Assembly: GCA_965197745.1 (NCBI GenBank)
Contig: CBDANS010000006.1
Coordinates: forward strand, 416,001-480,000
Length of the DNA: 64,000 bases
Reading direction: 5' to 3'
Origin: Opitutales bacterium
GTDB taxonomy: Bacteria; Verrucomicrobiota; Verrucomicrobiia; Opitutales; PNEW01
A program made the position numbers and the translations under genes. Positions 1,810 to 42,888 of the stretch are shown here, piece after piece (within the stretch, counting starts at the first letter, position 1; each line of letters opens with the position of its first letter). The notes beneath the pieces are model-generated. The model did no database searches, was not told the DNA's origin, and worked only from the letters and a program-made list of their open reading frames with translations.

Positions 1810-4023
1810 TTAGAATCCAATTCTTACACCACCTTTGAATGTGCGTGCTTCTAAGAATGCCTGATTTCTTTCGACCGCATCGATGTTAAACAAATTATGT
1901 ATGTTAAACATCAGAGTAACATCATAATCCTTCCAATCGAAGTTATATCGTGTGAATAGGCTGGTGTTGTAGATCTCATCGGAGTAACGACCCCGAGGAA
2001 CATCAGGAAGATTCGTGAAACCACTACGGTCTACTTCTTCCATATAGGTAAGGGTACCACCAAGGGCTAAACCCTCTAATGGACCCTCATTGAAGCTGTA
2101 ACGTGAGGTTACGCTAAACTGAGTTCCAGGTGCTCCACCCAAATTTCCGCCTTCACGGGCTGGATTGGTTTCGTCACTTACTAACTGGGTATCGAGGAAT
2201 GAGAAAGAGAACATGTTCTGCCAGTTATCCCATGGCGAGTAAACAAGGTCTCCATCAAAACCACTCGAATTTTCAATACCTGATAGGAAGGTGCGCTCAC
2301 CTGCACGGTTACCGGTAATGGGGTCAAAAATCGTCACCTGACGAGGAATATTCGACCGGTCAATGTCAAAGTATGACATCGAACCAGAGAGTCTTCCATC
2401 CCAGATATCTAATTTAACACCAAACTCGGTGCCTTTACCTGACTGCGGGTCAAGAGCATTGGCATCCTGTCCAGTTCCATTGTCAGCGAGAGATTCACTC
2501 CAGCTGAAGAAGAGTCCGAAACCGGGCCATACATCGAAAACGAGTCCAGCCTGGAAGGTTTCATCCTGTACTTCAGGGTTTTGAATCTGGTCAGTGCGTG
2601 CACCCCATAAGACATGTAATCTGCCGTCATAGGCTGTAATCTGATCAGTGAAGAACCATGCATCATAACCAAATCCACCACCTACGTTATGCAAGCGGTC
2701 AATTGTTTGTGATTTGCTCGGTGCGTCACCTTTCGGCCAACCAACGACTCTTTCCTGATCACCATCCGGACCTGCATCATTAGTAAACGGACTGTTGGGA
2801 TCATAGGGAACTACGTTATCAGTAAGATATCCAAACTGCGATACGAACTTTGAAGTTCTGCGCCTGGAATCAAACCCAATAACAATATTGTGTTCCATAT
2901 TCCAAATATTCGTTTTGAGTTGCAAGTCATGTCTGTGATGGGTGTGGTCTTCTTCCTCAATCGTGAAACGAGTTCCAATTTCCTGGAAACCATCGAACTC
3001 ACCACCGCGAATTAAACCACGAGGCTGCCTTAAGAAAACATCTCTTTCGCGCTGTCTGTTGAATATCACATAGCGGTAATTAACGTTTTCACTGAAGGAG
3101 TAGTCGAACTTTATGACATTGAAGTCATGGGTGTTGTCAAACCAGTCGTCTGGTCCTCTCCAAGCAACATTTTCTCTTCCACCACTATAGGCACGCCATG
3201 GGGACTGATTACCGAACTCGTCGGAAACCCAGAAGGGGGTTCCTTGGCTAGGAGTCCAGTCACGGTCATGGTGTTCCCATTCGAACTGGATAGTCGCCTT
3301 GTCCGTTAATCTCCATTGGACTGCACCATACAGGAATTCAATCTCGAGCTCTTCAAAGAGCTCATCAGATTTGTTATATACGTACTCACCTGTAAAGCGA
3401 TAGGCAATTCTATCACCGACAGCATCCAGAGGTCCAGTCACATCAAGAACCGCACGACGATAGGAATAATTACCGATGGTACCGGTAAAGGATCCCGAAC
3501 GCGTCCACTGTGGTTGCTTGGTGATTAAGTTGATCGAACCACCGGGTGTCATTGATCCATAAGTCACCGACCTCGGCCCTTTAATAATTTCCACGCGTGC
3601 GAGATTAGCTGCCGAGTGATAACCTGAGATGGTTACACCATTGCGGTAGATCTGATCTGTGGGGAACCCACGGATGTTATACCAGCCTTGGTCTCGTTCA
3701 GCATACTCCACTCTGACATTGGCGGCATATTCAACTATGTCATCCAAATCAGCAGACATGGTGTCAGCTATAAGGTCCTCAGTAATGGCTTGAATCGGAA
3801 TGGCTATATCTGTCAATGCAACTGCAGTTCTTGAACCACTGATGACATCGATAGCTTTATAGCCAACGTCTTTAGAAGTATCCACCTCGTACTCAGACAA
3901 GGTATAGACATCTTCCTCGTCTTGCGCTGATAATTGCACGGGTGCAATTATGGCAAGACTCAGTACTGTTGCCGTGCCAAAGAGAAATAATCTCTTCGCA
4001 AAGCAAGATAATACGTCACTCAT
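1810..4023 (-). CDS. TonB-dependent outer-membrane receptor (siderophore-receptor-like)
   Basis: Signal peptide, plug motifs IRGF and RVEIIKGPRSVTYG..PGGSINLITKQP, barrel motifs GTEFGVK and NIHNLFN, C-terminal F. Confidence 0.9.
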   Translation of the reverse strand: MSDVLSCFAKRLFLFGTATVLSLAIIAPVQLSAQDEEDVYTLSEYEVDTSKDVGYKAIDVISGSRTAVALTDIAIPIQAITEDLIADTMSADLDDIVEYAANVRVEYAERDQGWYNIRGFPTDQIYRNGVTISGYHSAANLARVEIIKGPRSVTYGSMTPGGSINLITKQPQWTRSGSFTGTIGNYSYRRAVLDVTGPLDAVGDRIAYRFTGEYVYNKSDELFEELEIEFLYGAVQWRLTDKATIQFEWEHHDRDWTPSQGTPFWVSDEFGNQSPWRAYSGGRENVAWRGPDDWFDNTHDFNVIKFDYSFSENVNYRYVIFNRQRERDVFLRQPRGLIRGGEFDGFQEIGTRFTIEEEDHTHHRHDLQLKTNIWNMEHNIVIGFDSRRRTSKFVSQFGYLTDNVVPYDPNSPFTNDAGPDGDQERVVGWPKGDAPSKSQTIDRLHNVGGGFGYDAWFFTDQITAYDGRLHVLWGARTDQIQNPEVQDETFQAGLVFDVWPGFGLFFSWSESLADNGTGQDANALDPQSGKGTEFGVKLDIWDGRLSGSMSYFDIDRSNIPRQVTIFDPITGNRAGERTFLSGIENSSGFDGDLVYSPWDNWQNMFSFSFLDTQLVSDETNPAREGGNLGGAPGTQFSVTSRYSFNEGPLEGLALGGTLTYMEEVDRSGFTNLPDVPRGRYSDEIYNTSLFTRYNFDWKDYDVTLMFNIHNLFNIDAVERNQAFLEARTFKGGVRIGF

Positions 4024-5521: not shown

Positions 5522-6925
5522 ATGATAAATATCCCCTATCATAAGGGCAGGTTACTCTTCTTTAATTTTGCCTTCATTTTACCGTTTTACTTCACCCCCC
5601 ACCTGGCTGCCGTAGACCCCCAGCCTAACTCTTTTCATGAAATCTTAGCGATAAGCAAAATTCGATCATCGAACGGGCAAGAGCGGAAAAATGCCTACAA
5701 CTACATAAACGCCCATTGGCAGGACAACTTCACTCCGATGATTCTGGAGCTCATTCAGTTGAACCGATACGAAGATTTGCGGCGGGGTTCCACAATACAG
5801 TTTTATCGCTTACTGCAAAAGAAAACAAAACAGCGTATCAGCAGTGATGTAAAAAAGTGGCAGGAATGGTTATGGAACAAAGAACCCGATTTACACCCTT
5901 ATTATGCCGCTTATAAATTTATGATTTATGGCCGCATCGACCGGCGATTTGAGAAATATTTCAGAGTCGGTCGAACCGCAAAAATACGGTTGGATGAAGT
6001 GGTATGGGGAGGCGTACGGCAAGACGCTATACCGCCTTTGCGCCACCCGAAGATGATCGATGCCAGCGAAGCTACATTTTTATCCATCAAGCAAAAAGTA
6101 TTTGGCCTTATGGTTAATGATACCGCCAGTGCTTATCCCCAACGCATACTCGCCTGGCATGAAATGGTCGTTGATGAGGTGGGGGGAGAACCTATAGCCG
6201 GAGTTTACTGCACGCTCTGCGGTTCTCTGGTCATTTATAAGACGAAGCACAAGGGAGTTAATCATCAACTGGGGACCAGTGGATTTCTCTACCGCTCTAA
6301 TAAATTGATGTATGATAAAAATACACAATCCCTTTGGAGTACCCTGCGAGGAGAGCCCGTTATCGGACCTCTCGCTGATGAGGCCATTAAATTGGATCGG
6401 ATCGGTGTTGTCACCACCTCGTGGGGTGAGTGGAAGAGGAGGCATCCCGCGACTCGGGTGATGTCCATAGATACGGGATATAGTCGCGATTATGGCGAAG
6501 GTGCAGCCTATAGGGAGTACTTCAGCAACGATGAGTTAATGTTCGCTGTTCCTAAAACGGACAAGCGACTCAAAAACAAATCCGAGGTATTAGGTTTAAT
6601 TTTCAGCGATTATCCAACAAAGCCCATCGCCATATCTGTAGATTTTTTGAATAAAAATCCTATCTATCATGACCGTGTTGGAGATCTCAACTTCGTGGTG
6701 CTTACCGACAAGTCCGGAGCCAATCGTGTCTATGATACCGAGGGTATCAATTTTAAAAATTGGGATGGCGATCAGACGGTTGTCGACGAAAACGATACCT
6801 CATGGAGATTAAGTGAAAATCGATTGGTTTCTACAGATGACCGCAGTCTTTTACGTTTACCGGCTCACCGCACCTTTTGGTTCGGTTGGTTCTCCACTTT
6901 TATGCAAACACGTTTAGTAAAGTAA
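5522..6925 (+). CDS. DUF3179-family protein with N-terminal extension, probably secreted
   Basis: GGVRQDAIP, AYPQRILAWHEMV, YCTLCGS, SGFLYRSNKLMYD..T.SLW and FWFGW motifs; N-terminal signal-like segment. Confidence 0.8.
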   Translation: MINIPYHKGRLLFFNFAFILPFYFTPHLAAVDPQPNSFHEILAISKIRSSNGQERKNAYNYINAHWQDNFTPMILELIQLNRYEDLRRGSTIQFYRLLQKKTKQRISSDVKKWQEWLWNKEPDLHPYYAAYKFMIYGRIDRRFEKYFRVGRTAKIRLDEVVWGGVRQDAIPPLRHPKMIDASEATFLSIKQKVFGLMVNDTASAYPQRILAWHEMVVDEVGGEPIAGVYCTLCGSLVIYKTKHKGVNHQLGTSGFLYRSNKLMYDKNTQSLWSTLRGEPVIGPLADEAIKLDRIGVVTTSWGEWKRRHPATRVMSIDTGYSRDYGEGAAYREYFSNDELMFAVPKTDKRLKNKSEVLGLIFSDYPTKPIAISVDFLNKNPIYHDRVGDLNFVVLTDKSGANRVYDTEGINFKNWDGDQTVVDENDTSWRLSENRLVSTDDRSLLRLPAHRTFWFGWFSTFMQTRLVK

Positions 6926-7076: not shown

Positions 7077-8063
7077 TCAGCCTTTTACATTTTTCTTCTT
7101 AATTTTCTTCTTAACATTTTTAGCCACACTTAATTTCGTCTTTGGATAAAACGCCTGCCAGGCAAACCAGTAAGACAATACAGAGGGAATAACTTCTCCC
7201 GTTCCACCGTGTGTGACTACTGCCTTTTTATTTTCTGGATCATAATTGATGTAGATATCCACTCCTTTAACGGTGTCTTTTACCGTTGCTTTAGGTGGAA
7301 ATAATGCCAGTTCATATGCCGCAGGGTGCTCATCGACTTTTACTCCTAATACCCAGGTCTTCGGTGCCAGTTCCGTGCGGTATAGTGAAACATTAAACAT
7401 GACACCCTTAGACTTTGCGTAGCCGGCATACGGGTTCCTGAAATAAGGTCTATCATATCCTGTTTTTTTGGAGAGCACCTCGCCATCAGGATAACTCTTC
7501 TTCCATACCTCCCAAGTCATAAGCTCGCTGACCATCCAGGGAAGTTCCTCGCCAACCATGGGGCCGGTGACTGCCTTCATGCCAAGTTGCGACCAAAGAC
7601 TTTCCGTCTGGCGATCATACAATAGAACATCGCTTTCATAAAGCATACCCGAACCGCCAAAATCAAATAATCGTCCGTTAATAGTGCGTTTAAAAACCAT
7701 CGCTGTACCACAGAGCGGACAATAGGTTACGGTAAAATGATCCTCCCCTATCGAGTCATTAACTATTTCATGATGATTGAGAATTCGGATTGGATAGGCT
7801 CGGTATTTGCCATTGCTATTTACACTTACAACCAGATCTTCATCCTTAAGGTACTCCGCCTCTTCCGGCTTTATAAAAAGGGGGTTGTCAAGAGCGGGAA
7901 TGGCATCCCGTTTTGGCCCTCCTCCTTTAATCATCTTTACCGGGACTATAGCGTTACCAAGGTTAAATCCATTTCTTATCGGCTCGCCGTAAATAGGGAT
8001 TCCGGCTAGAATGCCATAAATCCAAAGTAACAAGAGTCCGCCTTGTATTCTTACTGTGCTCAC
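7077..8063 (-). CDS. DUF3179-family protein, probably secreted
   Basis: GGPKRDAIPAL, AYPIRILNHHEIVND, YCPLCGT, SGMLYESDVLLYDRQTESLWSQ and YWFAWQAFYP motifs; Lys-rich tail. Confidence 0.8.
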   Translation of the reverse strand: MSTVRIQGGLLLLWIYGILAGIPIYGEPIRNGFNLGNAIVPVKMIKGGGPKRDAIPALDNPLFIKPEEAEYLKDEDLVVSVNSNGKYRAYPIRILNHHEIVNDSIGEDHFTVTYCPLCGTAMVFKRTINGRLFDFGGSGMLYESDVLLYDRQTESLWSQLGMKAVTGPMVGEELPWMVSELMTWEVWKKSYPDGEVLSKKTGYDRPYFRNPYAGYAKSKGVMFNVSLYRTELAPKTWVLGVKVDEHPAAYELALFPPKATVKDTVKGVDIYINYDPENKKAVVTHGGTGEVIPSVLSYWFAWQAFYPKTKLSVAKNVKKKIKKKNVKG

Positions 8064-18195: not shown

Positions 18196-19542
18196 TCATG
18201 TTTCAAACGGGTCAAGAAGCGGCTCTCGCCAATGGTTCAGCAATTCAACCCTGTCCCAATCGAGAATATAGGGAGTCATTTGATCGCCAATATCTCGCAT
18301 TAATGCGCTCCGTTTGAAGGCACGGGTATCCTTGGGTGGTTCGATTTTCGACTCTGAGATTGCTTCAGGTTCCCACATCCCATCACTGTTGGCCATGGCC
18401 AGTCCCAGGCTGTAAGCAGGATCTACGTTGTGATATTCTATATCCTGAGATTTGAGCCACGGATCATCCCAATCAAGATTTTCACTCGTCATGAAACTTT
18501 CAAGAAGATGCTGCTTGGTCACCCAATCGAGAATGCCAACAAGTTCAATTTTATCACCGGCCAGAGATTGAAGCACGCTTCTCCAGAGATTAAGAATGGA
18601 ATCGGTCTCACCGTTCCGATGCCGATACAGCGCGTCTGCATTTTCCCAGTACTTATAGAGCAGCTCAATGGCGTCCTCTACCTGACCGTCACTGGTGGTC
18701 ACCTCCCAGGGGGGTTCGATTTTACCATTTAAGGCATGCAAAGTACTCACCGCGTCGGCTAACTCGATCTCCGGTAAGCAATCGTCTTCGAGAAGATCGA
18801 GAACAAGTGAAGACGATCCGACTTTGAGGAAAAGAGCCGCAGGTAAAACGCTGCTGTCGCTGTGCAAAAGATGGAGCCGTCGATATTTCCTGGGGTCCGC
18901 GAGTGGTTCATCGCGCGTGTTAATGATAGCGCGGTTGTGCTGTACCCATTGAAAGAAATCGTTATGGATGTAATCCGCGCGCTGGCTCAACTGGAAGGGA
19001 GTTAAGTCCTCAATGACAATCGAGTGATGGAATAATCTCCCTTCTTTTGCCGATCCAACCCTTCCCGAACCTGTAAATATTACCCGAAGGGTCTGAAAGG
19101 CCAGGAGTGATAACACGTTTTTTTCCGTCAGGGGCGCATGCCGATCCATGCTGTAATTCTCGTGACAACCAAAGGTAGCACCTGTGAAGTGATCGATATT
19201 ATTGCGAAAAAATTTAACCTGTCCGTGAAAACCGAGTTCATCGACCGCTTCGACAAGAAGAAGATCGCCGGCCCGATCATAACGCACCGTATCAACGGCG
19301 CTGCCACATTCCGGAGTGCAATACTCGATGTGACCCATGTCGACGTAAATACGCCCACCGTTAAAGAGAAAACCTCCGTTCCCCACGGGCTCATCCCAAT
19401 CCCGATCATGAGTATCGATGAGACCGAACTTGTTGTTTTTAAAAAACCAATCACGAATTTCCGGGAGCACGAACTCAGGGACAAGTGGCTGTTCAATCAG
19501 ACAGCCGTATTCTGTCTCCAATCCAATGATACGGCGGGCCAT
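18196..19542 (-). CDS. pafA: Pup/UBact-protein ligase PafA
   Basis: GLETEYG, NGGRIYVDMGHIEYCTPEC, FGCHENY, SQRAD, IINTRDEP, C-terminal DW...DPF; no Dop loop; likely start MARRIIG at 19542. Confidence 0.88.
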   Translation of the reverse strand: MARRIIGLETEYGCLIEQPLVPEFVLPEIRDWFFKNNKFGLIDTHDRDWDEPVGNGGFLFNGGRIYVDMGHIEYCTPECGSAVDTVRYDRAGDLLLVEAVDELGFHGQVKFFRNNIDHFTGATFGCHENYSMDRHAPLTEKNVLSLLAFQTLRVIFTGSGRVGSAKEGRLFHHSIVIEDLTPFQLSQRADYIHNDFFQWVQHNRAIINTRDEPLADPRKYRRLHLLHSDSSVLPAALFLKVGSSSLVLDLLEDDCLPEIELADAVSTLHALNGKIEPPWEVTTSDGQVEDAIELLYKYWENADALYRHRNGETDSILNLWRSVLQSLAGDKIELVGILDWVTKQHLLESFMTSENLDWDDPWLKSQDIEYHNVDPAYSLGLAMANSDGMWEPEAISESKIEPPKDTRAFKRSALMRDIGDQMTPYILDWDRVELLNHWREPLLDPFET

Positions 19543-19550
19543 GCGATGCG

Positions 19551-20270
19551 CTAAAGTTTCGCGACGTCCAAAGGCTGATAACACCCATTCCCCTTGGACT
19601 CGCGCTTAAGCAGGACAGCCTCAATCGTTTTTCCAGGCACTTGCAGAATCTTTTTTTTAGGGGCGATCAATCCGACATTTAAATTATCTTCTATAAGGGC
19701 GTTCCAGGCCGTAAGACAGAGCGAGATAACCCGTCCCAGATTATCCTCTTTATTGATTGTTTCGCGCAGCCATTCTGCGACTATGGCCTCTGTCCCCCAG
19801 ATGGGACCTGCCACCACGATACCGGTTGTTGAATACTCGTGGTTGCCGTCAAAACATAAACGGACAATGGCATCATTTTTCGGTGTTTTCCCTACTTCTG
19901 CCATTATCGATTCTACCATCAATGGCGGGGAAAATATTTGTTCGAAACTGTTCTTTAATGCCGGGCTGAGGGAAAAACTCACGAGACGTCGTAGCGACAC
20001 ATCCTCGGAGGATCGATTAAACCCCTCGGTATGGGCAGCTTCTATAGCCGTTTGTCTAAGTCTTTCAATATCGACGGGGTTACCGAGAGCGGCTAAAGCA
20101 TGCCGGTCATATATTTCATATACTTTTGACTGCCCGCTGCTCACCCCCAGTAAGAACACACCCTCAGGACGTGAAAGAGCAAAAACGGGAGTGCCTCCCT
20201 TAATCTGATCGAGAATGTACTCACGGCGATTCCTGATGGCGTCCAACCAGCGATAGGGTTCTTCATGCAT
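19551..20270 (-). CDS. prcA: 20S proteasome alpha subunit
   Basis: EEPYRWLDAIRNRREYI N-terminus and SKVYEIYDRHALAALG (compare actinobacterial QKISELYDRVGFAAAG); lies between prcB and pafA. Confidence 0.85.
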   Translation of the reverse strand: MHEEPYRWLDAIRNRREYILDQIKGGTPVFALSRPEGVFLLGVSSGQSKVYEIYDRHALAALGNPVDIERLRQTAIEAAHTEGFNRSSEDVSLRRLVSFSLSPALKNSFEQIFSPPLMVESIMAEVGKTPKNDAIVRLCFDGNHEYSTTGIVVAGPIWGTEAIVAEWLRETINKEDNLGRVISLCLTAWNALIEDNLNVGLIAPKKKILQVPGKTIEAVLLKRESKGNGCYQPLDVAKL

Positions 20271-20272
20271 GA

Positions 20273-21043
20273 TCACCCTGCCTTCCAGTATTTCAATTGT
20301 TCGTTGGCGTCGAGCGTGCGAACCCCGTCTTTAGAAAGTAATTTAATCGTTCCGAAAAGTTTACTTTCCGGTTTTACTCCACCCGTAGCAGTATCAAACT
20401 CCGCCGCGGTCATGAGCAGTCGATTGGCGAGGTTCGTGGATGCCTGCAAGTCCATCTCCGCGGGCTTGGGGTGACCCCATTTTTCCAGATAACTAAGAAC
20501 ACTTTTTATATGACTGGATCCGGAACCGGATGCGGCAAAACTGGTGGCCTCGAAATTAGCGCCTAGCGGATCATAAAAATAGATATTGGGGTCAGTCTTT
20601 TTTCCAACCTCATCCTGGCCCGCGAAGATAGGGGCGACCACGCCGATACCTTGAAGCGTAACGGGAAGGTTGTCGCGCAGGAGTCGGGAAAGAGCACGTA
20701 CTTTCGCTGACAGGCTCATCGACTGCAGCTGGCTGCGCCGATAAAATTCAAAAGCAGTGCGTAAAGTGCGAGCCATTTCTGTAGCGATCGCCGGTGATCC
20801 GGCAATGGCCATGATCGACCTTTCATCGAGTTCGAGTATTTTTTCTGCGCTATCGGAAAATATAATATTACCGCTTGTCGCGCGATGGTCTCCCGCAAAC
20901 ATTACCCCCTCTTCACTGTGAAAGGCAAAAACGGTGGTCGCTTCGAGTGTCGAAATCTGTTCACCCAACTGTTCTAAGCGAGGAAAGGGATTCTTCGGCA
21001 GCAGTGATAGGAAGTCGCCATTCATGGCGCGGGGATCACTCAT
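20273..21043 (-). CDS. prcB: 20S proteasome beta subunit
   Basis: 35-aa propeptide followed by TTVFAF..GDHRATSGN..EK, giving Thr1/Asp17/Lys33 at canonical spacing; SGSGS motif. Confidence 0.92.
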   Translation of the reverse strand: MSDPRAMNGDFLSLLPKNPFPRLEQLGEQISTLEATTVFAFHSEEGVMFAGDHRATSGNIIFSDSAEKILELDERSIMAIAGSPAIATEMARTLRTAFEFYRRSQLQSMSLSAKVRALSRLLRDNLPVTLQGIGVVAPIFAGQDEVGKKTDPNIYFYDPLGANFEATSFAASGSGSSHIKSVLSYLEKWGHPKPAEMDLQASTNLANRLLMTAAEFDTATGGVKPESKLFGTIKLLSKDGVRTLDANEQLKYWKAG

Positions 21044-21054
21044 AATAAAAATGC

Positions 21055-21231
21055 CTATTGACCGGTCCGCTGACGATATCGTTTTGCCTGGTCGGGATCG
21101 ACTTTCTTCATACGTTTAAGCAAGTCATCCGTATTCGGCTTATTAACCTTGGGCTCTCGGGGCCCATCCCCGTCGCCCCCTCCCCCCGGTGACGGGTTCG
21201 TGGGTTTAACTTTTCGGGTGGGATCTGGCAT
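21055..21231 (-). CDS. ubact: Ubiquitin-like modifier UBact, 58 aa (below the ORF-track cutoff)
   Basis: Manual translation: MPDPTRKVKPTNPSPGGGGDGDGPREPKVNKPNTDDLLKRMKKVDPDQAKRYRQRTGQ*. LLKRM..VDP.QA.RYRQRTG(Q/E) C-terminus; sits in the pup position between dop and prcB. Confidence 0.93.
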   Translation of the reverse strand: MPDPTRKVKPTNPSPGGGGDGDGPREPKVNKPNTDDLLKRMKKVDPDQAKRYRQRTGQ

Positions 21232-21249
21232 ATTCTATATTATAGCGTA

Positions 21250-22773
21250 TTAAATATTCCTTGCAAACGGCAGTTGCGCTAAATCTTCAACTTCACTTGC
21301 CTTTTTAATTACCGCAACTCCCTCATTTATTGATTCAATATCAAATAGATCACGGAGGCTGAGTTCAATCTTTTTTACATCACCTTCGATTCGAACATGG
21401 TCCCATTGCGCGCTCGTGATACGAGAGCCGAATTTTTCAATACAGACGCCACGAATCAGGGCCCGCGTATCGGGTGGTGGGGTTAAAGTGTCACTCATTA
21501 TCTGTTTATGTGGATAGGGCAAGGTGAAAGCTCCCTGATCCAGCAGCGCATAATATAGACCTTCCTGGGGATCCATGCGGTGATATTCGAGATCCAGGCT
21601 TCGTAACCATTCAGATTTTTCATCAATATTTTCAGCTTCGCGAAACGATTCGATAAGCTTATGTTTTGCCGACCAATCGAGACGATCAGAAGTCGTCAGT
21701 GGATTGTTTTCAAGATCGTCCAGGACCTTTTCCCATGCCTCAATAATTCCCGACCAGTCTTCATCCATTGCGTCATTTAACTGACGGACCCGTTCAAGAT
21801 AACTTCGCTGGACGTCAATGGCGTTACTCGTCCTCCCATCGGAGAGACGAACCATCCATTTCCAATGGGGATCACGTGATATGGATTTAAGGGCGTGAAG
21901 AGGATCTTCAAGTTGTGGTATCTTTTCAAGTGACATCTTATTAGTTAAACACTTCAGGACGAGGGCCGTGGTTCCGACTTTCAGCCATGTGGCATAGGGC
22001 GAGAGATTGGCATCGCCGATGATCACATGAAAGCGTCGCCATTTACTTTCATCAGCATGCGGTTCGTCTCGCGTATTAATAATAGGGCGTCGCTGCATCG
22101 TATCGATACTTTGCAGCTCAGAAAAAAAATCACTGCGTTGACAGAGTTGAAACCCCGATTGCACATATTTATCTTCCGCTTCCCAGCCGTATTTACCCGC
22201 ACCACAAAAAATTTGTCGCGTCACAAAAAATGCCTGTATGCCCTGAGCCAGTATTTCCCATGGTAATTCTCGAGGGAGTAGATAATTCTCGTGGCACCCA
22301 TAACTGTGACCCTGAAAATCAGTATTGTTTTTATAGAGGATGACAGGGTTTTCGGTCGTCTTATTAATGGCTTGCGCGCAGCTGATAAGAAGCTGGTCTC
22401 CACTGTAATCCTGTTGAAGAAGCTGCCTCAAAGTACGGCATTCAGGAGTGCAGTACTCCGGGTGCGCATGATCATTGTAAAAACGGGCCCCATTTTTCAA
22501 AACCAGGTCACTTTTTATTTCCCCAAAAGAGAGCGGGCGGGCGGCATCCTGCGCAAAGTAGTTCGCTTCATCAAAATCCTGTTTCAGCTTATCGACGCGA
22601 AATCCACGAGCGTCCTGATGGGGATCCTCGTAGTGATAGTCCCACCGCATACGAATCCCGGGAGCCGTCGCGCTTCGCACCAGATCAATTGACTCTGCTA
22701 CAACATCGATCCCCTCAGGATCCTGCCGCGTAATACCATACTCCGTTTCCAGACCAAAAAGAATTTCCGCCAT
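21250..22773 (-). CDS. dop: Deamidase/depupylase Dop (PafA2)
   Basis: GLETEYG, Dop loop RWDY..EDP..DARGF, NGARFYNDHAHPEYCTPEC, SYGCHENY, RPIINTRDEPHAD, RRFHVIIGDAN. Confidence 0.92.
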   Translation of the reverse strand: MAEILFGLETEYGITRQDPEGIDVVAESIDLVRSATAPGIRMRWDYHYEDPHQDARGFRVDKLKQDFDEANYFAQDAARPLSFGEIKSDLVLKNGARFYNDHAHPEYCTPECRTLRQLLQQDYSGDQLLISCAQAINKTTENPVILYKNNTDFQGHSYGCHENYLLPRELPWEILAQGIQAFFVTRQIFCGAGKYGWEAEDKYVQSGFQLCQRSDFFSELQSIDTMQRRPIINTRDEPHADESKWRRFHVIIGDANLSPYATWLKVGTTALVLKCLTNKMSLEKIPQLEDPLHALKSISRDPHWKWMVRLSDGRTSNAIDVQRSYLERVRQLNDAMDEDWSGIIEAWEKVLDDLENNPLTTSDRLDWSAKHKLIESFREAENIDEKSEWLRSLDLEYHRMDPQEGLYYALLDQGAFTLPYPHKQIMSDTLTPPPDTRALIRGVCIEKFGSRITSAQWDHVRIEGDVKKIELSLRDLFDIESINEGVAVIKKASEVEDLAQLPFARNI

Positions 22774-22791
22774 GAGCGTCCAAGGCTAAAT

Positions 22792-24498
22792 CTATACAGC
22801 CGAGCTATGGTCCTCCCCTGATTTTCTCTTATAAGGGTTGAGGCGCACAATGTTAGACGGGTCGAAATCTGTCAACTTAAGCCAGTCTTCTGTGATATCA
22901 GAGGGCGGAAATAATTCGTTTTCCTTATATTCCTTTTCGAAAGCCTCCAGGAGATCATCGATGGAAATGGGAGACGGTGATTCACCACCCTCTTTTATTG
23001 AACGCTTAATGGCGTATTCCTTAGCACGCTCGACAATGGCCGCGATGACCGCGCCGCTGGCCAGATCACCACGATAGAGATGCTCCTGCTTGCCGCTTCG
23101 GTAGGTAACTTCAAGAAATCGGTTCGTCTCGGTCTTCTCGTAATGGGCTTTGACAATTTGATCAATGAGTTCTTCTTGCGGTTTTGCTAAAGGCAGTGAT
23201 TCTTCGATATAGATGCCATATATTTCTCGCGCTGCTTCCGCGTCAGGCCGCTTAACCCCGATTTTACGATCTATGCGTCCCGGACGCAGTATCGCCGGAT
23301 CAATTAAATCAGCCCGATTAGAGGCGAGAATAATGACGACATTTTTCAATGCTTCCATGCCATCCATCTCCGCACAGAACATCGGGACAAGGGTGGAAAC
23401 AATATTATTACCCGAGCGATAGGCGCTGCGCGTGCCAAGAATCGATTCCGCTTCATCGATAAAAAGAAAAGCGAGTTGACCCTCGGATGCCTTTTCACGA
23501 CATTGCATAAAGAGATCGCGGACCTGCCGCTCAGATTCACCAAGCCACATATTGAGAATTTCCGGTCCCTTAACATGGAGAAAAATCTCCGGATGGTCTT
23601 CTCCGGTATGCGTTAGGATCTGCTGCCGGAGGTTATGGGCGGTAGCTTTGCCCATCAGGGTCTTACCGCAGCCCGGTGGACCGTAGAGGAGAAATCCTTT
23701 AGGTGCTGGATGATTGTAGCGCTCGAAGAGATGAGCATGTAAAAAAGGTAATTCAATCGTATCGCGGATCGCCTCGATGGCCTCCTTCTGGCCACCAACC
23801 GCATCCCAGGGGACGCGTTCAACCGTAGCGAGACTGCGTTCGATTCTTTTTGCTTGTCCAATAATTTCAACTACGACTCTTTGATTGGGATCGAGTCGCA
23901 CATCCATTCCCGTTTTTAATTTTTCTTTGGAAAGCAGGCTGGATCGCAGGGCGGTGATGTCCGCCAGTCCGTGTTCGGAGCCAACACGGATACGCCCGTC
24001 ATGCATTATTTCCTGGATGCGCACAATGGGACCGCTTTTGTCCAATCCGAAAGAGTCGATTACGGCAAAGGCTTCATTTAGGAGGACCCGCATTCCTGTT
24101 TCAAGAACCGCATCTGGCAATGAAGGATCCACATTGCAAAGATAATCGGTGCCATTAGCACACACCATGGCGCGGTCCGCTCCCACGCGTTGAATAAGGG
24201 TGGCCAGACGCAGTGCAGGTGAACGCAATTTGTTAACCGCTTCACTCAATTGCTCGACCGCACTGCGTGCCTGATCCTGAAGCTCTTCCATTTCCTCAAT
24301 ACGATCACGAAGCAATTTGATTTCATACCCGTCTTCGGCCTGAATGTATAGTTTTTTTGCGATACGATCAAAAAGCTGTAAAGCAGAGAGACGATTGGGG
24401 TTTATATCCTCCTCTTCAGTCTCATCAAATGGCTCTCGTTCGTCTGAGAAAGGATCATCCTCAGGCAAATTTCCATCAGGATCATTATTTTTTTTCAC
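22792..24498 (-). CDS. arc: Proteasomal AAA+ ATPase ARC/Mpa
   Basis: Coiled coil and OB-like N-region, GPPGCGKT, KGPEILNMWLGESER, FIDE, SNRADLIDPAILRPGRID, LEVTYRSG..E.LY..D..SGA. Confidence 0.92.
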   Translation of the reverse strand: MKKNNDPDGNLPEDDPFSDEREPFDETEEEDINPNRLSALQLFDRIAKKLYIQAEDGYEIKLLRDRIEEMEELQDQARSAVEQLSEAVNKLRSPALRLATLIQRVGADRAMVCANGTDYLCNVDPSLPDAVLETGMRVLLNEAFAVIDSFGLDKSGPIVRIQEIMHDGRIRVGSEHGLADITALRSSLLSKEKLKTGMDVRLDPNQRVVVEIIGQAKRIERSLATVERVPWDAVGGQKEAIEAIRDTIELPFLHAHLFERYNHPAPKGFLLYGPPGCGKTLMGKATAHNLRQQILTHTGEDHPEIFLHVKGPEILNMWLGESERQVRDLFMQCREKASEGQLAFLFIDEAESILGTRSAYRSGNNIVSTLVPMFCAEMDGMEALKNVVIILASNRADLIDPAILRPGRIDRKIGVKRPDAEAAREIYGIYIEESLPLAKPQEELIDQIVKAHYEKTETNRFLEVTYRSGKQEHLYRGDLASGAVIAAIVERAKEYAIKRSIKEGGESPSPISIDDLLEAFEKEYKENELFPPSDITEDWLKLTDFDPSNIVRLNPYKRKSGEDHSSAV

Positions 24499-24635
24499 GG
24501 GAAAAAATTATCTATAAATAATATTCAAGTGTTACGATTATGAAATTCAGGATGTTCTACCGCATCTTATGGTATAAATAAACAAAAATCAAAAAATTTA
24601 CGAGTGATGCATAATCTACAGCTCATGTATCGTTT

Positions 24636-26513: not shown

Positions 26514-29465
26514 ATGTCCTCCTCTCTTCGCCTCTACTTGGCTTCCAGCTTCGAACAAGCCTGGGTAGAGGTGCTCGTCCCCTGGTTTAAGAAAGCCGTC
26601 TCTCACGCCTCTCAAAACACTCTACCTTGCGCTGCCGTTGTCCCTTCTCACGCTCTTGCCAGTCTTCTCAAAGCGCGTCTCGTCGAGGCAAATATCCCTC
26701 TTTATAATATCTATTTGTGGACCCCGGAGGACTTGGGAAAATACCTGCGTACTATTTATTTAAGCAGTAAAAAAATTGCGCTGCGGGAGGATTTGCGTCT
26801 GCTTATGTCTGCCGCCGCAGATGAGTTTTCAAACCAACCTGCCGCTAATGCTGTCGCTTCCAACCCTGACGATCTTCTCCTCGCTTACGATACCCTTTTG
26901 CGGGCCGCTCACGATAAAATGTCACTGACTAGTGAATTAGGTCGTGGGATACTCTCCCGATTTGAGAAAATGCTCACCCAATCGGGGCTTTTGAGTGAAC
27001 CACAAGCGGAACGCTTAATGGCCGAAGGCCATGCAGAAGAAGGGCGCTTAATCTCACTCCTCCTTTATGGATTTGGCGGTCGTGAATGGCGTTATTTATC
27101 GCTCTTGCAGGCGGCAAAAAAATCAGCTGAAAAAGTTACCCTATGTCTGTCTGATAGTCGATGTGAGAGCGATCGTTTATGGCAGGCGACGTTGGAGGAG
27201 ATTTATGGTGAGGTGCAACTCGTTTCCAATCCGGAGGAAGATACAAAATCCCCCTTCAGGATCACGGCTCAATTATTAGAATTAGATAGTCGAGGCGAAT
27301 TCGAGCCGGATCAAAATCCTGTCATCTATAGAATCGCTGCGAACATAAGAGAGGAAGCCATAGCCGTCGTCGCACAGGGATTACAATTTTTGATGCAGCC
27401 CAATTGCCGTCGTCTTGGTATTGTTCTCCCTAAACATTCAGCAGTAGCACGGGAAGTATCAGCCTGTCTGATTCAGTTTGAAATACCCCACCATGATACG
27501 ATCGGGCATTACCCTGTGCAACCGGATCGACAGGCACTTCTCAATCGATGGCTGGATTTTCAAAACGATCCTCGATTATCCCCTATTATAAGTTTTCTTC
27601 ACTTATGTCGGGAGCAACATATAGTCACGGTGGTAGACGCCATCAAAATCGAAGCTTATATTAAACGGACCTATGAAACATTAATGACCGATGACTTTAG
27701 GGTAATACGTTCCTGGCTGCATGATAACGAACCTGAGGGAGTCGGTTCGATTTTTTTGGATTCCTGGCAGCTGCTCCCCACACATGCCACGATGGTTGAC
27801 TTTCTCACTTTATCGGTCGATGCCCTCAGCGCTCTCGGCTGGAAAAGTGAAGTAGAGAGCTTGCCGTCGAATACCCCCAGTTTGAGCAAAGTCCTCAACA
27901 CCCCGATCGACCGTCGCCATTTTCTTAAATGGCTGGGTGATATATTGCGCACCCCTGGCCGCAATCGCCACCCCTTAGGGCGCCATTCGCTCTCGCCGCT
28001 TCAGCTCCTCTCCTATGATCAAATTGGGGATCAATCTTTCAGTCACCTGGTTTTAGCCGGTTTAAACCAAGGGGCATGGCCATTTGAAACCCCCACCAAC
28101 CTGTTTCTCTCGGACACCCATCTGGACAGGTTGAATAGAACCGTTGTTCAACAGGGTTCCCAAGGTGAAGGGCATCAGGTAGTGATAAAAGGGCGGGGAT
28201 ATCTTCTCACGATGGAAGAAAAGCGGTTACAGGCGAAAGCTGAATTTATAAACCTCCTTGAAACGGTGAGTGAAGGGTTAGCGGTTTCTGCCAGTTTATC
28301 AGCAGAAAATGATTTCAATCAATCAGCGTTGGTCAGCGATCTTCTTCTGAGACTTTACTGGGCAGATCGTGGTTCCTTTCTCGATGATCGACAAATGCAG
28401 AGCATAAGTCGTGAAACAGCCGCACGGTGTGAAAAGTTCAGTCAGTTGCTCCCTGAGAGGACACCGGGCATCGAACGCATGCTGCATGCATTTAATATTC
28501 GACGAGACCTCAATAAACCATTCGGGGAATTTGAATTCAGTTTTCAATCTCCACCTCGGGGAGGCATCCGATTATCTTGTAAAAGATTTGAAGATATTCT
28601 CAGGAGACCGGCTGCGGTATGGTTGGAGAGTGTACTACAGGCACGCAAACCGTCGGATTATAACCAGTCAATCCAGCTGCCGTTAGTGATTGGGAACTGG
28701 GTGCATCGATGGTTGCGTTTTTCCTTAATCCAGGGATTTTCCCCTATCCTGAAAGAGGAGGAGTGGGAAGCTAAAGTGTATGATCACGCCCATTCTCTTC
28801 GTGACAATGTAGCCCGTGCCTACGCAAAAGCGGACCGTGAATTGCCGGACTGGTGGAACGCATGCTGGTCCGAGGCTTTTCATTATGGGAAAAACCTGGT
28901 GAATTGTGTTTCTCAAGTAGAGGGATGGCCTTTCGTTGCTGCTGAATTTAATTTACCTGAAAATACAGTTGGACTCGCCGGCGATGATATTCAACTGCCA
29001 TTGAGTGGTCGTATAGACCTGGTGTTGTCCACAGAGTGTATTTCCGATATTCGAAAAAAAAATGAGTTTACAAATAATACGCAATTTTGGGTTGTCGATT
29101 TCAAAACGGGAAACGACAAAGCGCTCAGCACTTCGTTACTAAAGAAAGGTGAAGGGGTGCAAATTGCCCTCTATGCGCTGGCGCTCCACTCCAGGGGATG
29201 TAATAAAATCTGGGCCAGTACACTGCAACCTAATGGTGAACTGAGTAAACAATTGAGTCTCGAAAATATATTGGAACTTGGGGATCTGTGGGAAGGACTC
29301 GCCGCTATTCAACATAGCGGTGTATTCGGAATGACAGGGCCAATCTATTCCCGTTTCGCTTTCGTCGGTGATTACCCCATCGCGACCCTTTCAATCAGCG
29401 AAGATATTCTCAATGCTAAATGGAATATGTCTCATCCGCTCCTAACCCTCACACAGGGATCCTGA
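26514..29465 (+). CDS. AddB/RexB-like subunit with C-terminal PD-(D/E)XK nuclease
   Basis: LAGLNQGAWP helicase-remnant motif; GRIDLV...VVDFKTG...QIALYAL RecB-type nuclease; directly upstream of the AddA-like gene. Confidence 0.75.
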   Translation: MSSSLRLYLASSFEQAWVEVLVPWFKKAVSHASQNTLPCAAVVPSHALASLLKARLVEANIPLYNIYLWTPEDLGKYLRTIYLSSKKIALREDLRLLMSAAADEFSNQPAANAVASNPDDLLLAYDTLLRAAHDKMSLTSELGRGILSRFEKMLTQSGLLSEPQAERLMAEGHAEEGRLISLLLYGFGGREWRYLSLLQAAKKSAEKVTLCLSDSRCESDRLWQATLEEIYGEVQLVSNPEEDTKSPFRITAQLLELDSRGEFEPDQNPVIYRIAANIREEAIAVVAQGLQFLMQPNCRRLGIVLPKHSAVAREVSACLIQFEIPHHDTIGHYPVQPDRQALLNRWLDFQNDPRLSPIISFLHLCREQHIVTVVDAIKIEAYIKRTYETLMTDDFRVIRSWLHDNEPEGVGSIFLDSWQLLPTHATMVDFLTLSVDALSALGWKSEVESLPSNTPSLSKVLNTPIDRRHFLKWLGDILRTPGRNRHPLGRHSLSPLQLLSYDQIGDQSFSHLVLAGLNQGAWPFETPTNLFLSDTHLDRLNRTVVQQGSQGEGHQVVIKGRGYLLTMEEKRLQAKAEFINLLETVSEGLAVSASLSAENDFNQSALVSDLLLRLYWADRGSFLDDRQMQSISRETAARCEKFSQLLPERTPGIERMLHAFNIRRDLNKPFGEFEFSFQSPPRGGIRLSCKRFEDILRRPAAVWLESVLQARKPSDYNQSIQLPLVIGNWVHRWLRFSLIQGFSPILKEEEWEAKVYDHAHSLRDNVARAYAKADRELPDWWNACWSEAFHYGKNLVNCVSQVEGWPFVAAEFNLPENTVGLAGDDIQLPLSGRIDLVLSTECISDIRKKNEFTNNTQFWVVDFKTGNDKALSTSLLKKGEGVQIALYALALHSRGCNKIWASTLQPNGELSKQLSLENILELGDLWEGLAAIQHSGVFGMTGPIYSRFAFVGDYPIATLSISEDILNAKWNMSHPLLTLTQGS

Positions 29466-29477
29466 AAACACAATTCC

Positions 29478-32400
29478 ATGACTGAAATATTATCAGATAG
29501 TGCTAATCGCCATAGGTTTGTGCATGAATTTAATCATAATTTTTCCGTTCATGCCCCGGCCGGTGTCGGTAAAACCAAAGCTATTGTTGACCGAATAGTC
29601 AATATTGCATTGAATGATAGTGAAAGTGAGCATACCCTCCTGCAGCGTCTGGTAATAGTCACTTACACAAAAAAAGCGGCTGACGAGATGCAACACCGCA
29701 CACGCAACGCGATCATGGAAAAAGGCGTGGGACCCGACGTGGTAAATCGACTGAACCAGGCTTACTTCGGAACGATTCACAGTTATTGCCTGGAGTTGCT
29801 CAGGCAGCAAGGATCCCTCCTGGGGTTGCCTGCGACGATCGAAATAGCGGAGAGCGAAGATCTGCTGTGGGAGCAGTTTATCCGAAGTTCAGATCTATTA
29901 ACCGCTATTCTTCCCGAAGAGGCGCGCCTTTATTTTTTACGCCACACACGATTGGATTCGATATTCCAACTTGCCCGCAAATTAAAGTTTCCGGTTGAAA
30001 AGGGGCAGGAAAAAAAGGTCCCCCCCCAACCTGAACTCGATTTTGATCCTGTATTTCAATGTCCGCCAAATAAGAGGTCTAAAGGCAATGTAGAAACCGG
30101 CCAGGAAATATTGCGGCGTTGGCTGGAGGTGGAAGCCGATGGCGACGGCTATAATCCCATACCCGTCTATGAAAAAGGGGGCAAAGATTTCCAGGAAATA
30201 TGGAGCAACAGTTTCATCCCTTTAAGAAACTGGTTAGGGAAAACCGCTATCGTATTAATAAGCCATGTGTCACAAGAATATTTAAAATTTCGGATTGCCC
30301 AGGGTCTGCTCACATACGGGGATCTCGTGGAATTGGTATTGGAATTATTGAAGGATGTGCAAGTTGGAGGGGAAATCCGGGCAGAGGGTAAATGTGTTAT
30401 ACTCGACGAAGCCCAGGACACGGATCCGAGTCAATTCAAAGTCTTGACTGAAATTGCGCGTCCTGAGAGCGCACAAGGTGTCTGGATAAACGGCGATGAT
30501 CAACCGCCGGAGGCAGGTCGCTTTTGTATGGTTGGTGATCCCCAACAATCTATTTACGGCAGCCGTGCGGATCTTGTCGTATATCAACAACTGCACCAAA
30601 AGTTTCTAAAAGAAAATGCCGCAGAAGAGTTGATCTTTGAAGTGACCTTTCGCTGTGCTGAGCGCATTGTTGATGCCGTTAATCTATTCTTTCCCCAGGT
30701 TCTCAAGGGAACTGGTAAAATAGGTGAGCAAGTAAAATTTGTTCCTTTAAAAGCCAGACCGGATGCAGAAAAAGGTCAGCTATTCCGAGCTATTTTGGAT
30801 CGTCCTGGAGAGATTGAGCAATCAAGGCGGCAGGGTGTTGTAGCACTCTCCTATGCTACCGCATTAGCCAACTGGCTGAAAAGAATTAAACCCGAGGATT
30901 TAGGAGCGCGAAGCTGGTCCGACGTTGCCATTCTCTGCCCACGAAACGAATGGCTGGAGACACTTGACGTCGAGCTGAAGGCCGCGGGCTTCGCCACTCA
31001 ACTGCTCTCACGTTCAGACCGTATGGGCAATAACCCGACATACGCGTGGTTCACCTCCCTTATGGCGATCATTAGCGAACCGGAAAATGCTTTTGAAATT
31101 GCCGGTGTCCTTCGTGAATTTTTCGGAATATCCGATCACGATCTGGTGGCCTATTATCAATTTTGGAAAAGTCATCACGAACAGTACCCCCCGACAACCC
31201 ATGCCTTGCAGATACTCCATCCTGTTGAGGGGGATGGGTGCGTAGCCGAAACGCTGAACCTGCTTGCCCGATCCCGTCAGAAAGCGATGACGATGCCCCT
31301 TCGTGAAGCCGTTGCTTATCTCGTTGATGCGGTCCAATTGCGCCATCGCCTCGTGATGCTTCCCCTCAGCTACCCCAGTGAGACTAACACCCTGCTCGAT
31401 CATCTGATAGCGCAATCAGCGGTGGCTGAAGGGGAGAGAATGTCTTTAGCGGAATGGACCTATTCGCTTGTGAACGGGTTAGATAATCAAATCGATAGTG
31501 GTTCCCTTCTCCCCGATCATATTCAACTGCTCTCCACACATAAAGCCAAAGGCCTGGAATGGGATGCCGTTTTACTCCCCTTCTTTTTTCGCCAGATTAA
31601 CTATGCACACGGTAACTATCCAAGACTCAACTATGAACAGGGACAGAAAAGTCTGACTGTAACTCTAGATAAACAGCATGATACTAATACTTATAGAGAG
31701 CAGTTAGATAAGGGGCAGCACCAGGAGTTGGATCGCCTGCTCTATGTCGCTATAACACGCGCGCGTCAGACCCTTGTTCTTTTCAATGATGAATCGTTTT
31801 TTCCTCCAGAAAAAAATTCTTTTGGAACCCGGTTAAAAGTTAACCTGAACGAGACTAACCATGAACATTGGATCGCACTCCCTACGGGCCTTCATACGGA
31901 TACTGAATCAGAGGCTGGCGTCGATCGAGATGTTGTTACCGAGAATGTTGATGAGAAAAAGATCTCTCCCTTTGACTCGACGATATTAAAGAGTGCCCGC
32001 AGACATGGCCTGGGGAAATTTAAACACGCCACCCCTCACACCCTGGCAATGCGGGTAAAGGACCTCCCCACCGAGAGGGACGAACCGGAACAACTCCTCG
32101 GTCATGCTTTTCCCGACGAGTCCTCAAACACGGCGGCCACAGAGTATGGCAGTTGGTGGCATGAAATGATGGAGGAAAATGCCTGGGACAAGAACATGGA
32201 GAACTGGAAAAGTCACTGTGCTTCAAAGGCGCAATCTCCCACATGTCCGGATCCTCACAGAGGCAGGGAGGAGATTGAACTTTTTTTTTATTCTCAACTG
32301 ACGGCACAATTGACGGCACACGATTATAGAATCCAAACGGAGGTGCCATTTCTCTGGCGTGATGATGAGGACAGCGTCTTTGAGGGCCTGATCGATTTCG

Positions 32401-32612
32401 TAGCCTATGATCACACCCTGAAGCAATGGATGGTTATCGACTGGAAAACACATCAAGCCACCGCACAGAATTTTACCGCTGACCTTGTCAAGCAATATAC
32501 ACCCCAATTATCAGCTTATGCCAACGCCCTTCATGGAATTTCCGGTGAACCGGTTAAAACCTATTTGTATTCAACAGCACTCGGTCAATTGTTAGCGATC
32601 GAGGACAGTTGA
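29478..32612 (+). CDS. addA: AddA/RecB-like UvrD helicase-nuclease
   Basis: APAGVGKT, TYTKKAA, TIHSY, DEAQD, GDPQQSIY, THKAKGLEW, LYVAITRA; nuclease GLID..IDWKT..QL.AY. Confidence 0.85.
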   Translation: MTEILSDSANRHRFVHEFNHNFSVHAPAGVGKTKAIVDRIVNIALNDSESEHTLLQRLVIVTYTKKAADEMQHRTRNAIMEKGVGPDVVNRLNQAYFGTIHSYCLELLRQQGSLLGLPATIEIAESEDLLWEQFIRSSDLLTAILPEEARLYFLRHTRLDSIFQLARKLKFPVEKGQEKKVPPQPELDFDPVFQCPPNKRSKGNVETGQEILRRWLEVEADGDGYNPIPVYEKGGKDFQEIWSNSFIPLRNWLGKTAIVLISHVSQEYLKFRIAQGLLTYGDLVELVLELLKDVQVGGEIRAEGKCVILDEAQDTDPSQFKVLTEIARPESAQGVWINGDDQPPEAGRFCMVGDPQQSIYGSRADLVVYQQLHQKFLKENAAEELIFEVTFRCAERIVDAVNLFFPQVLKGTGKIGEQVKFVPLKARPDAEKGQLFRAILDRPGEIEQSRRQGVVALSYATALANWLKRIKPEDLGARSWSDVAILCPRNEWLETLDVELKAAGFATQLLSRSDRMGNNPTYAWFTSLMAIISEPENAFEIAGVLREFFGISDHDLVAYYQFWKSHHEQYPPTTHALQILHPVEGDGCVAETLNLLARSRQKAMTMPLREAVAYLVDAVQLRHRLVMLPLSYPSETNTLLDHLIAQSAVAEGERMSLAEWTYSLVNGLDNQIDSGSLLPDHIQLLSTHKAKGLEWDAVLLPFFFRQINYAHGNYPRLNYEQGQKSLTVTLDKQHDTNTYREQLDKGQHQELDRLLYVAITRARQTLVLFNDESFFPPEKNSFGTRLKVNLNETNHEHWIALPTGLHTDTESEAGVDRDVVTENVDEKKISPFDSTILKSARRHGLGKFKHATPHTLAMRVKDLPTERDEPEQLLGHAFPDESSNTAATEYGSWWHEMMEENAWDKNMENWKSHCASKAQSPTCPDPHRGREEIELFFYSQLTAQLTAHDYRIQTEVPFLWRDDEDSVFEGLIDFVAYDHTLKQWMVIDWKTHQATAQNFTADLVKQYTPQLSAYANALHGISGEPVKTYLYSTALGQLLAIEDS

Positions 32613-41359: not shown

Positions 41360-41374
41360 TCCCCGATTATTTCT

Positions 41375-42850: not shown

Positions 42851-42888
42851 TTGACTCCGCGGTTGTTCAATCCAACTCCTTTATTTTA

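Follow-up and report, generated by a model that had tools for sequence, protein, structure and literature searches.

We describe here a UBact-proteasome operon on the minus strand of a 64,000-nucleotide (nt) stretch of DNA (the window) from an Opitutales bacterium (GenBank assembly GCA_965197745.1, contig CBDANS010000006.1, positions 416,001 to 480,000). UBact-proteasome systems are a little-studied form of ubiquitin-like tagging in diderm bacteria. Between 24498 and 18196 the minus strand carries six intact and co-oriented open reading frames (ORFs) with 0 internal stops, in the order proteasomal AAA ATPase, Dop-like protein, UBact, prcB, prcA and a second gene of the Pup-ligase family. The first gene (22792..24498) encodes an arc/mpa-like proteasomal AAA ATPase of 568 amino acids (aa) with matches to Pfam AAA (E 3e-30), Prot_ATP_ID_OB_N and Prot_ATP_ID_OB_C. 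It is followed by the gene of a Dop-like deamidase/de-conjugase candidate of 507 aa (21250..22773; Pup_ligase 491 bits, E 4e-147, profile 2-440/441) and by the 58-residue UBact tag (21055..21231; PF20513, E 9.5e-24). The two proteasome genes are prcB, encoding a 20S proteasome beta precursor of 256 aa (20273..21043; Pfam Proteasome, E 4.8e-24), and prcA, encoding a divergent 20S proteasome alpha subunit of 239 aa (19551..20270; TIGR03691, E 9.6e-20). The last gene (18196..19542) is pafA-like ("PafA2" clade) and encodes a candidate UBact ligase of 448 aa (Pup_ligase 354 bits, E 1.6e-105, profile 1-440/441).

With corrected start codons the intergenic gaps along the run are 18, 18, 11, 2, and 8 nt, in agreement with a preliminary description of this DNA as six packed minus-strand genes, arc-dop-ubact-prcB-prcA-pafA, with gaps below 20 nt; taking the longest-ORF starts instead produces overlaps of 4 and 34 nt. 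For prcA the most likely start is ATG 20270, given the conservation of MxEEPYRW at the N-terminus of the 12 homologues shown in the alignment; for the pafA-like gene it is ATG 19542, as a length of 448 aa is found in nearly all of the 120 homologues listed. The run is compact with no additional gene inserted, and all six proteins match their own families over nearly the full profile length. The source genome (4.45 Mb in 7 contigs, 92% complete) contains exactly two Pup-ligase-family genes, both within the operon. A TonB-dependent receptor Plug domain is encoded by an ORF at 1810-4023 of the window; it supports a diderm context for the host and bears out the outer membrane that the preliminary description had deduced from a TonB receptor. 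Compared with the canonical UBact locus (PF20513, NF033388) the window has all six genes, with order and orientation unchanged, and the same RTG[QE] end of the tag, with no difference of substance. We concluded that this is a genuine and intact UBact-proteasome operon of canonical form, carried on the chromosome of an Opitutales-like verrucomicrobium. It is compact, complete and free of frameshifts and thus usable for reconstitution, as are hundreds of others.

Ahead of the six genes just one non-coding gap is of any size, an AT-rich spacer of 137 nt 5' of arc (24499..24635, minus strand), which is for that reason likely to be their promoter region; it includes a weak sigma-70-like match (9/12) at 24535-24507, and the sigma-70-like scan of the region barely exceeds shuffled sequences (16 matches found vs. 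11.5 expected). A candidate internal promoter of ubact at 21267-21239 (TTTGCA-17-TATAAT, 10/12 sigma-70-like), located inside the 3' end of the dop-like gene, was rejected in view of that scan and because its -10 hexamer is not kept in a same-family locus (L003) and three other loci. There is no RNA run among the 10 sequencing runs (4 studies) that contain all or part of the stretch. A non-coding stretch of 177 nt lies 3' of the pafA-like gene.

UBact tag, ATPase and proteasome core

The tag exceeds both curated UBact cut-offs (83.4 vs. 27.8 bits for PF20513 and 89.8 vs. 35 bits for NF033388). Its N-terminal half is rich in Gly and its C-terminal half is conserved; the protein ends in RTGQ, with the stop codon directly after it. 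UBact-related proteins form 466 clusters; in the best 120 of these homologue clusters the C-terminus is RTGQ in 96 and RTGE in 24, i.e., RTG[QE] in 120/120. In 16 aligned UBact sequences 27 columns are invariant, mostly in the C-terminal half (KPNT..LLK.M.KVDP.QA.RYRQRTG). The Gln end is the majority form (96/120), which implies a deamidation step before ligation. The expected tryptic remnant on lysine is Thr-Gly-Glu (+287.11 Da, computed from standard residue masses), and since the tag ends in Gln, not Glu, this remnant also presupposes deamidation. Pup of Mycobacterium tuberculosis ends in Gln as well, according to Iyer et al. (2008; PMC2588565). The tags of the loci covered there were taken as Pup orthologues; the window tag fits the UBact model and has no match to Pfam Pup at E 0.01 or better, PF20513 alone being listed.

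The arc ATPase begins with an acidic tail, continues with a helical region, two OB domains and an AAA domain, and closes with a C-terminal domain whose last residues are SSAV. Its Walker A (GPPGCGKT) and Walker B (FIDEAE) motifs are in place, and among solved structures its best matches are chains of M. tuberculosis Mpa (E 6.5e-91). TIGR03689 (pup_AAA) matches over profile positions 13-508/512 with 420.5 bits, compared with an equivalog cut-off of 504.75; the NCBIfam equivalog cut-offs for the enzyme and subunit models used in this work are actinobacterial. PrcB scores 135.7 bits on TIGR03690 (cut-off 191.9). Its T36 aligns with residue 1 of the mature Rhodococcus beta subunit (1q5q_H), which predicts a 35-residue propeptide and the mature N-terminus TTVFAF, and the catalytic residues Thr1 (precursor T36), Asp17 and Lys33 are in place. 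Among 76 aligned UBact-linked PrcB sequences T1, T2, D17, and K33 are invariant, and the residue preceding Thr1 is Ala in 67/76, a difference from the actinobacterial system. PrcA is divergent, with no Pfam family at E 0.01 or better; it is recognized by TIGR03691 (71 bits vs. a cut-off of 139) and by the solved alpha subunits of Rhodococcus and M. tuberculosis (E 4e-10 to 3e-8). The Lys of its activation pocket (K49, aligned to K52) is invariant in 47/47 homologues. The family searches that the preliminary description had proposed thus found UBact, Pup_ligase in both paralogues and Proteasome in prcB, with prcA identified by TIGR03691 and not by Pfam. The catalytic motifs it had called intact are so: Walker A and B in the ATPase, GLETEYG and the catalytic Asp in each of the two paralogues, and Thr1, Asp17 and Lys33 in the beta subunit.

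The two Pup-ligase-family paralogues

The Dop-like protein keeps GLETEYG and the catalytic Asp, and the DHAHPEY motif is present. With NCBIfam its best model is Dop (TIGR03688, 444.8 bits), 113 bits ahead of PafA (332.1 bits); the Dop score is below the TIGR03688 equivalog cut-off of 492.3, as it is in 4/4 clade representatives. Residues 5-461 align with Acidothermus Dop (4b0r), Dop loop included, and an insert of about 81 residues is found at the place of that loop. For a residue-level comparison we used the positions discriminating Dop from PafA in Hecht et al. (2020; PMC7947786) and four sets of sequences, namely 8 canonical Dop, 6 PafA-type, 48 UBact-linked Dop-like and 18 UBact-linked PafA-like. 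After the catalytic Asp the Dop-like clade has the Dop-type residues His (48/48) and Ala (44/48), positions 3 and 4 are likewise of Dop type (Ser in 46/48 and Val in 47/48), and position 7 is aliphatic (V/A/I) as in Dop. The loop, His-Ala, Ser/Val at positions 3 and 4 and the aliphatic position 7 all correspond to the Dop pattern in Table 1 of that paper. The alpha-loop of the clade is related to that of Dop, yet it carries SxDTM instead of GLETT. The AlphaFold2 (AF2) model of the protein is confident (predicted local distance difference test, pLDDT, 84.9) and shows no helix in the alpha-loop region, which agrees with what is described for Dop. Judged by these residues, nearly all discriminating positions in the clade of the first paralogue are of Dop type.

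The second paralogue also keeps GLETEYG and the catalytic Asp, and several features suggest that it is on the ligase side. Its match to the Dop model begins at profile position 84 and the match to the PafA model runs end to end; similarly, among the solved structures Dop is aligned only from residue 64 on and PafA (4b0t, 4bjr) end to end. The Dop loop is missing, with 48 residues in the loop region vs. 81 in the Dop-like protein. Position 7 is Phe in 18/18 members of the pafA-like clade and in 6/6 PafA, and the catalytic Asp is followed by Met (18/18) and Gly (14/18), i.e., by a hydrophobic residue plus Gly as in PafA. Position 46 is Asp in 18/18 and in PafA 6/6; Dop has Asn, Ser or Gly there and the Dop-like clade has Gln. 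According to Hecht et al. (PMC7947786), the Phe 7, Met-Gly and Asp 46 positions are in segments able to support ligase activity. One source labels a homologue of this protein "PafA2 family".

Other results weigh against calling this gene product a ligase. On the NCBIfam models it scores higher on Dop (279.8 bits) than on PafA (233.8 bits), by 46 bits, and both scores are far below the equivalog cut-offs (492.3 for Dop and 551.3 for TIGR03686 PafA). The clade lacks the extra residue that PafA has after the catalytic Asp (DMGH vs. DVGSH), and in 18/18 sequences its alpha-loop has V/I and Q in place of the Thr pair that is conserved in Dop and PafA. In terms of Table 1 of Hecht et al. (2020), where the PafA pattern is given as Leu-Asp-Val-Gly-Ser and an alpha-loop H.WEG.SSATTRS, the clade has Asp-Met-Gly and no Thr-Thr. 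Its own alpha-loop, Y.QNDFFEWVQHN, is nearly invariant within the clade and unlike those of both Dop and PafA. The AF2 model has a mean pLDDT of 69.3, with values below 50 at residues 160-228 and of 30-42 in the alpha-loop region (residues 160-230); a predicted helix at 195-202, considered as a sign of a PafA-like conformation, was dropped because pLDDT is too low there. In the phylogenetic analysis described below, the branch joining the clade with PafA has a support of 46 in IQ-TREE, and a tree forcing both UBact-type clades together is 1.9 log-likelihood units worse and is not rejected by the approximately unbiased test (p-AU 0.437).

The same ambiguity is seen across the clade. Grouping was initially based on the motif surrounding the catalytic Asp, and a portion of the groups was subsequently compared with NCBIfam: 6/6 canonical Dop representatives pass the Dop cut-off, and 10/10 PafA-motif representatives score higher on PafA, 2 of them passing the PafA cut-off, while 7/7 representatives of the pafA-like clade are within about 20 bits on the two models. 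Assignment of the window gene to PafA or Dop by hidden Markov models therefore failed, the scores being ambiguous. For the trees, the pafA-like protein was used as query and the best 150 of 4402 matches, as representatives of 50%-identity clusters, were the input. FastTree, run on 117 full-length representatives (420-640 aa) and the two window proteins (119 rows), gave a split with support 99 between 42 rows (all PafA-motif sequences and the window pafA-like protein) and 77 rows (all Dop and the window Dop-like protein). IQ-TREE, run on 41 rows picked by group with a site-mixture model and a short search, strongly supports both UBact-type clades (99 and 98). With FastTree support 99 against IQ-TREE support 46 and p-AU 0.437, the trees do not settle the origin of the pafA-like clade. 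We concluded that the gene is part of a clade of its own, which the models cannot assign to either Dop or PafA. The name pafA in the preliminary description agrees with the gene position and with a few residues; the family model, in which Dop outscores PafA, and the trees do not bear it out.

Complex prediction was carried out for the pafA-like protein and UBact. The score was 0.83, 0.82, and 0.83 in three runs, and 0.00 for the best of three controls; a mark of 0.83 is reached by 116/157 solved complexes and by 2/215 mismatched pairs. The runs share at least 64% of contacts and the partner pLDDT is at least 50. In the predicted complex UBact residues 32-54 are placed on residues 346-383 of the pafA-like protein and on the active-site sheet (13-15, 112-122). 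The prediction supports binding of UBact by the pafA-like protein but does not show it, and the score may reflect likeness alone because a PafA-Pup complex has been solved (4bjr). Taking the residues, the absence of the Dop loop and the gene position together, and not orthology from trees, we consider it likely that the pafA-like gene product is the UBact ligase; this is the least certain step of the scheme given below.

Further large clades of the Pup-ligase family, neither canonical Dop nor PafA, were also observed (P0265-P0385). One of them has D-x-G-H-x-E-W after the catalytic Asp, and another has DMGHPEY together with loop inserts of up to 167 residues.

Distribution and synteny

The name UBact reportedly goes back to Lehmann et al. 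in 2017, who are said to have given the canonical UBact-proteasome locus of Gram-negative phyla as mpa-dop-ubact-prcB-prcA-pafA. Pup-like genes beside PafA paralogues and proteasome genes had been reported in Verrucomicrobia, Nitrospirae and others (Iyer, Burroughs and Aravind, 2008; PMC2588565); there, the loci likewise have a small G[EQ]-ended tag by one of two PafA-family paralogues and three proteasome genes. The preliminary description was right in calling the family not new, given this report and the 392 UBact relatives found in a scan of one genome per species. By title, the best 80 of the 392 relatives are mostly Verrucomicrobiota. The nearest among these 80 (L003) is a metagenome-assembled genome (MAG) titled "Opitutales bacterium", with a tag 91% identical and proteins 77-91% identical to those of the window.

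Synteny was analyzed in 55 loci with at least 3.4 kb of upstream and at least 3.2 kb of downstream sequence; neighbours were called by tblastn at E 1e-5, at which divergent genes may escape, so that counts of missing genes are upper bounds. The six-gene order of the window is the commonest form (22/55 loci) and one more locus has it with an insertion; in the other forms either the last gene is absent nearby or arc and dop are. The locus is thus the commonest form of a catalogued system, and this copy has nothing that sets it apart. Of the variant loci, eight (L028, L034, L036, L037, L039, L040, L045, L050; six titled Methylacidiphilales) have arc-dop-ubact-prcB-prcA and no PafA-like gene within 3.2 kb downstream. 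In seven others, most titled Chthoniobacterales (L046, L057, L059, L064, L069, L074, L082), only ubact-prcB-prcA are together. Five loci are in MAG contigs titled Akkermansia muciniphila, Klebsiella, Bacteroidetes or Betaproteobacteria (L005, L010, L038, L043, L051) and encode proteins 55-75% identical to verrucomicrobial ones; these bin labels may be wrong.

The ligase-candidate clade with its alpha-loop, the Tyr-less ATPase tail described below and the Ala before Thr1 are traits of the whole UBact family and are not specific to the window. What the present analysis adds to the catalogue is the pafA-like clade with its own alpha-loop and the ATPase without the GQYL Tyr. A TPR gene upstream and a GDP-mannose dehydratase gene downstream of the operon were considered as accessory parts of the system and rejected, since among the best 80 loci they recur only in L003.

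Mechanism, alternative readings and neighbouring genes

The operon is likely to work in the same way as the Pup-proteasome system of actinobacteria. By this analogy, the Dop-like enzyme would deamidate the C-terminal Gln of UBact to Glu, and the product of the PafA2-clade gene would activate that Glu with ATP and join it to lysine side chains of target proteins. An ARC/Mpa-like hexamer would then capture the conserved C-terminal half of UBact, thread the disordered Gly-rich N-terminus and unfold the substrate into the PrcAB 20S core; the Dop-like enzyme may also be able to remove the tag. Every one of these steps is carried over from pupylation by homology, and the support is good but indirect. 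The actinobacterial loci have the same order mpa, dop, tag, prcB, prcA, pafA, and the best solved relatives of the window proteins are actinobacterial (structures 4b0r, 4b0t, 4bjr, 7px9, 3h6f).

Three observations weigh against this reading. None of the five enzyme and subunit genes reaches its actinobacterial NCBIfam equivalog cut-off, and a literature search that did not include most subscription journals found no experimental study of UBact or of pupylation in these phyla. The third concerns docking of the ATPase on the proteasome. According to PMC9599533, M. tuberculosis Mpa docks via its C-terminal GQYL, where Tyr608 bonds alpha Arg26 or Glu119 and the carboxylate meets Lys52. In contrast to GQYL, the tail of the window ATPase is SSAV (small-small-hydrophobic-hydrophobic, no Tyr), and among 42 UBact-linked ATPases the penultimate residue is Tyr in 0/42 and the C-terminal residue is Ile or Val in 41/42. 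The window alpha subunit has Gly at the position of Arg26, which in M. tuberculosis binds the Mpa Tyr (PMC9599533) and is also Arg in the Rhodococcus alpha subunit; its homologues have Gly, Pro, Glu or Asp there. The Tyr-less ATPase tails and the missing equivalent of alpha Arg26 suggest that the docking detail differs across the UBact family from that of M. tuberculosis. The statement of the preliminary description that the locus mirrors the actinobacterial system is therefore accurate for the architecture and not for every contact, given the scores below the equivalog cut-offs and the ATPase without the GQYL Tyr.

These differences could be taken further. UBact may not be a simple copy of pupylation, with a PafA2 ligase that arose by its own route from a Dop-like ancestor (alpha-loop NDFF-E/Q-WVQHN and no PafA helix with the two Thr; actinobacterial PafA has DVGSH where the window candidate has DMGH and its own alpha-loop) and with a Tyr-less docking of the ATPase matched by an Arg26-less alpha subunit. 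We regard this as tentative and rather unlikely in full; if true, tagging and gate opening would both have been solved a second time, independently. A different division of labor, in which the paralogues are not split as deamidase and ligase, the last gene encodes another hydrolase or else a subunit for regulation or substrate selection, and ligation is carried out by the Dop-like enzyme or not at all, is less probable still. It would account for the higher Dop score of the last gene, for the near-equal scores of all seven clade representatives on the two models, for the missing PafA insertion and alpha-loop Thr pair, and for the grouping of the clade with the Dop-like one that the topology test did not reject. 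Set against it are the absent Dop loop, with a Dop match starting only at position 84 and a PafA match running end to end, the PafA-type Phe 7, Gly after Asp and Asp 46, which are invariant or nearly so in the clade, and the position of the last gene on the PafA side of the 119-row FastTree; moreover, a tag ending in Gln in 96 of the 120 best homologues needs both a deamidase and a ligase.

Two further readings leave the assignment of the ligase aside and question the role of the operon or of the tag. The operon could be a passenger, intact in appearance but silent or acquired by recent transfer, that plays no role in the organism, and the distribution of UBact is indeed sporadic: in a sample of the phylum the UBact cut-off was passed in 10/301 genomes, the source genome included, and in the order outside the window's own family UBact was present in 1/37 genomes. 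Within that family, on the other hand, the operon is present in 2/3 other genomes (the genome without it is 82% complete), and one of these same-family genomes also has the TPR and GDP-mannose dehydratase genes on the flanks, with proteins 63-85% identical. The six genes are intact and their catalytic residues invariant, the G+C content of 0.48-0.49 over the operon compared with 0.42-0.51 over the window gives no compositional break, and no mobile-element genes flanking the operon were found among the window ORFs by domain search. We consider a passenger improbable. Even less probable is a UBact that is never covalently attached to proteins; it would then be an adaptor that binds non-covalently, or else the ATPase-proteasome would have it as a substrate or regulator. 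In favor of this reading, the tag has no Pfam Pup match at the threshold given above and no published UBact conjugate data were found in the literature search. The invariant RTG[QE] end in 120/120 best homologues argues for conjugation, as does the constant presence of a Pup-ligase-family gene beside UBact in canonical loci; the predicted binding mode, with the conserved C-terminal half of UBact in a groove toward the active-site sheet, is in line with it as well. The reading that we favor thus remains a tag-and-degrade system of the pupylation type, in which the Dop-like and PafA2-clade proteins would act as deamidase and ligase, respectively.

Other ORFs of the window were noted in the course of the domain search. 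About 2 kb upstream of the operon and on the opposite strand there is a large gene pair (26514-32612) encoding proteins of 983 aa (PD-(D/E)XK nuclease) and 1044 aa (UvrD helicase plus PD-(D/E)XK), which looks like a helicase-nuclease of the AddAB/RexAB type. Two adjoining divergent DUF3179 paralogues are located at 5522-6925 and 7077-8063. An ORF of 922 aa (44874-47642), with no Pfam match at E 1e-5 or better, directly follows a run of ABC-2 transporter, ABC_transp_aux and DUF4340 genes (39552-44865).

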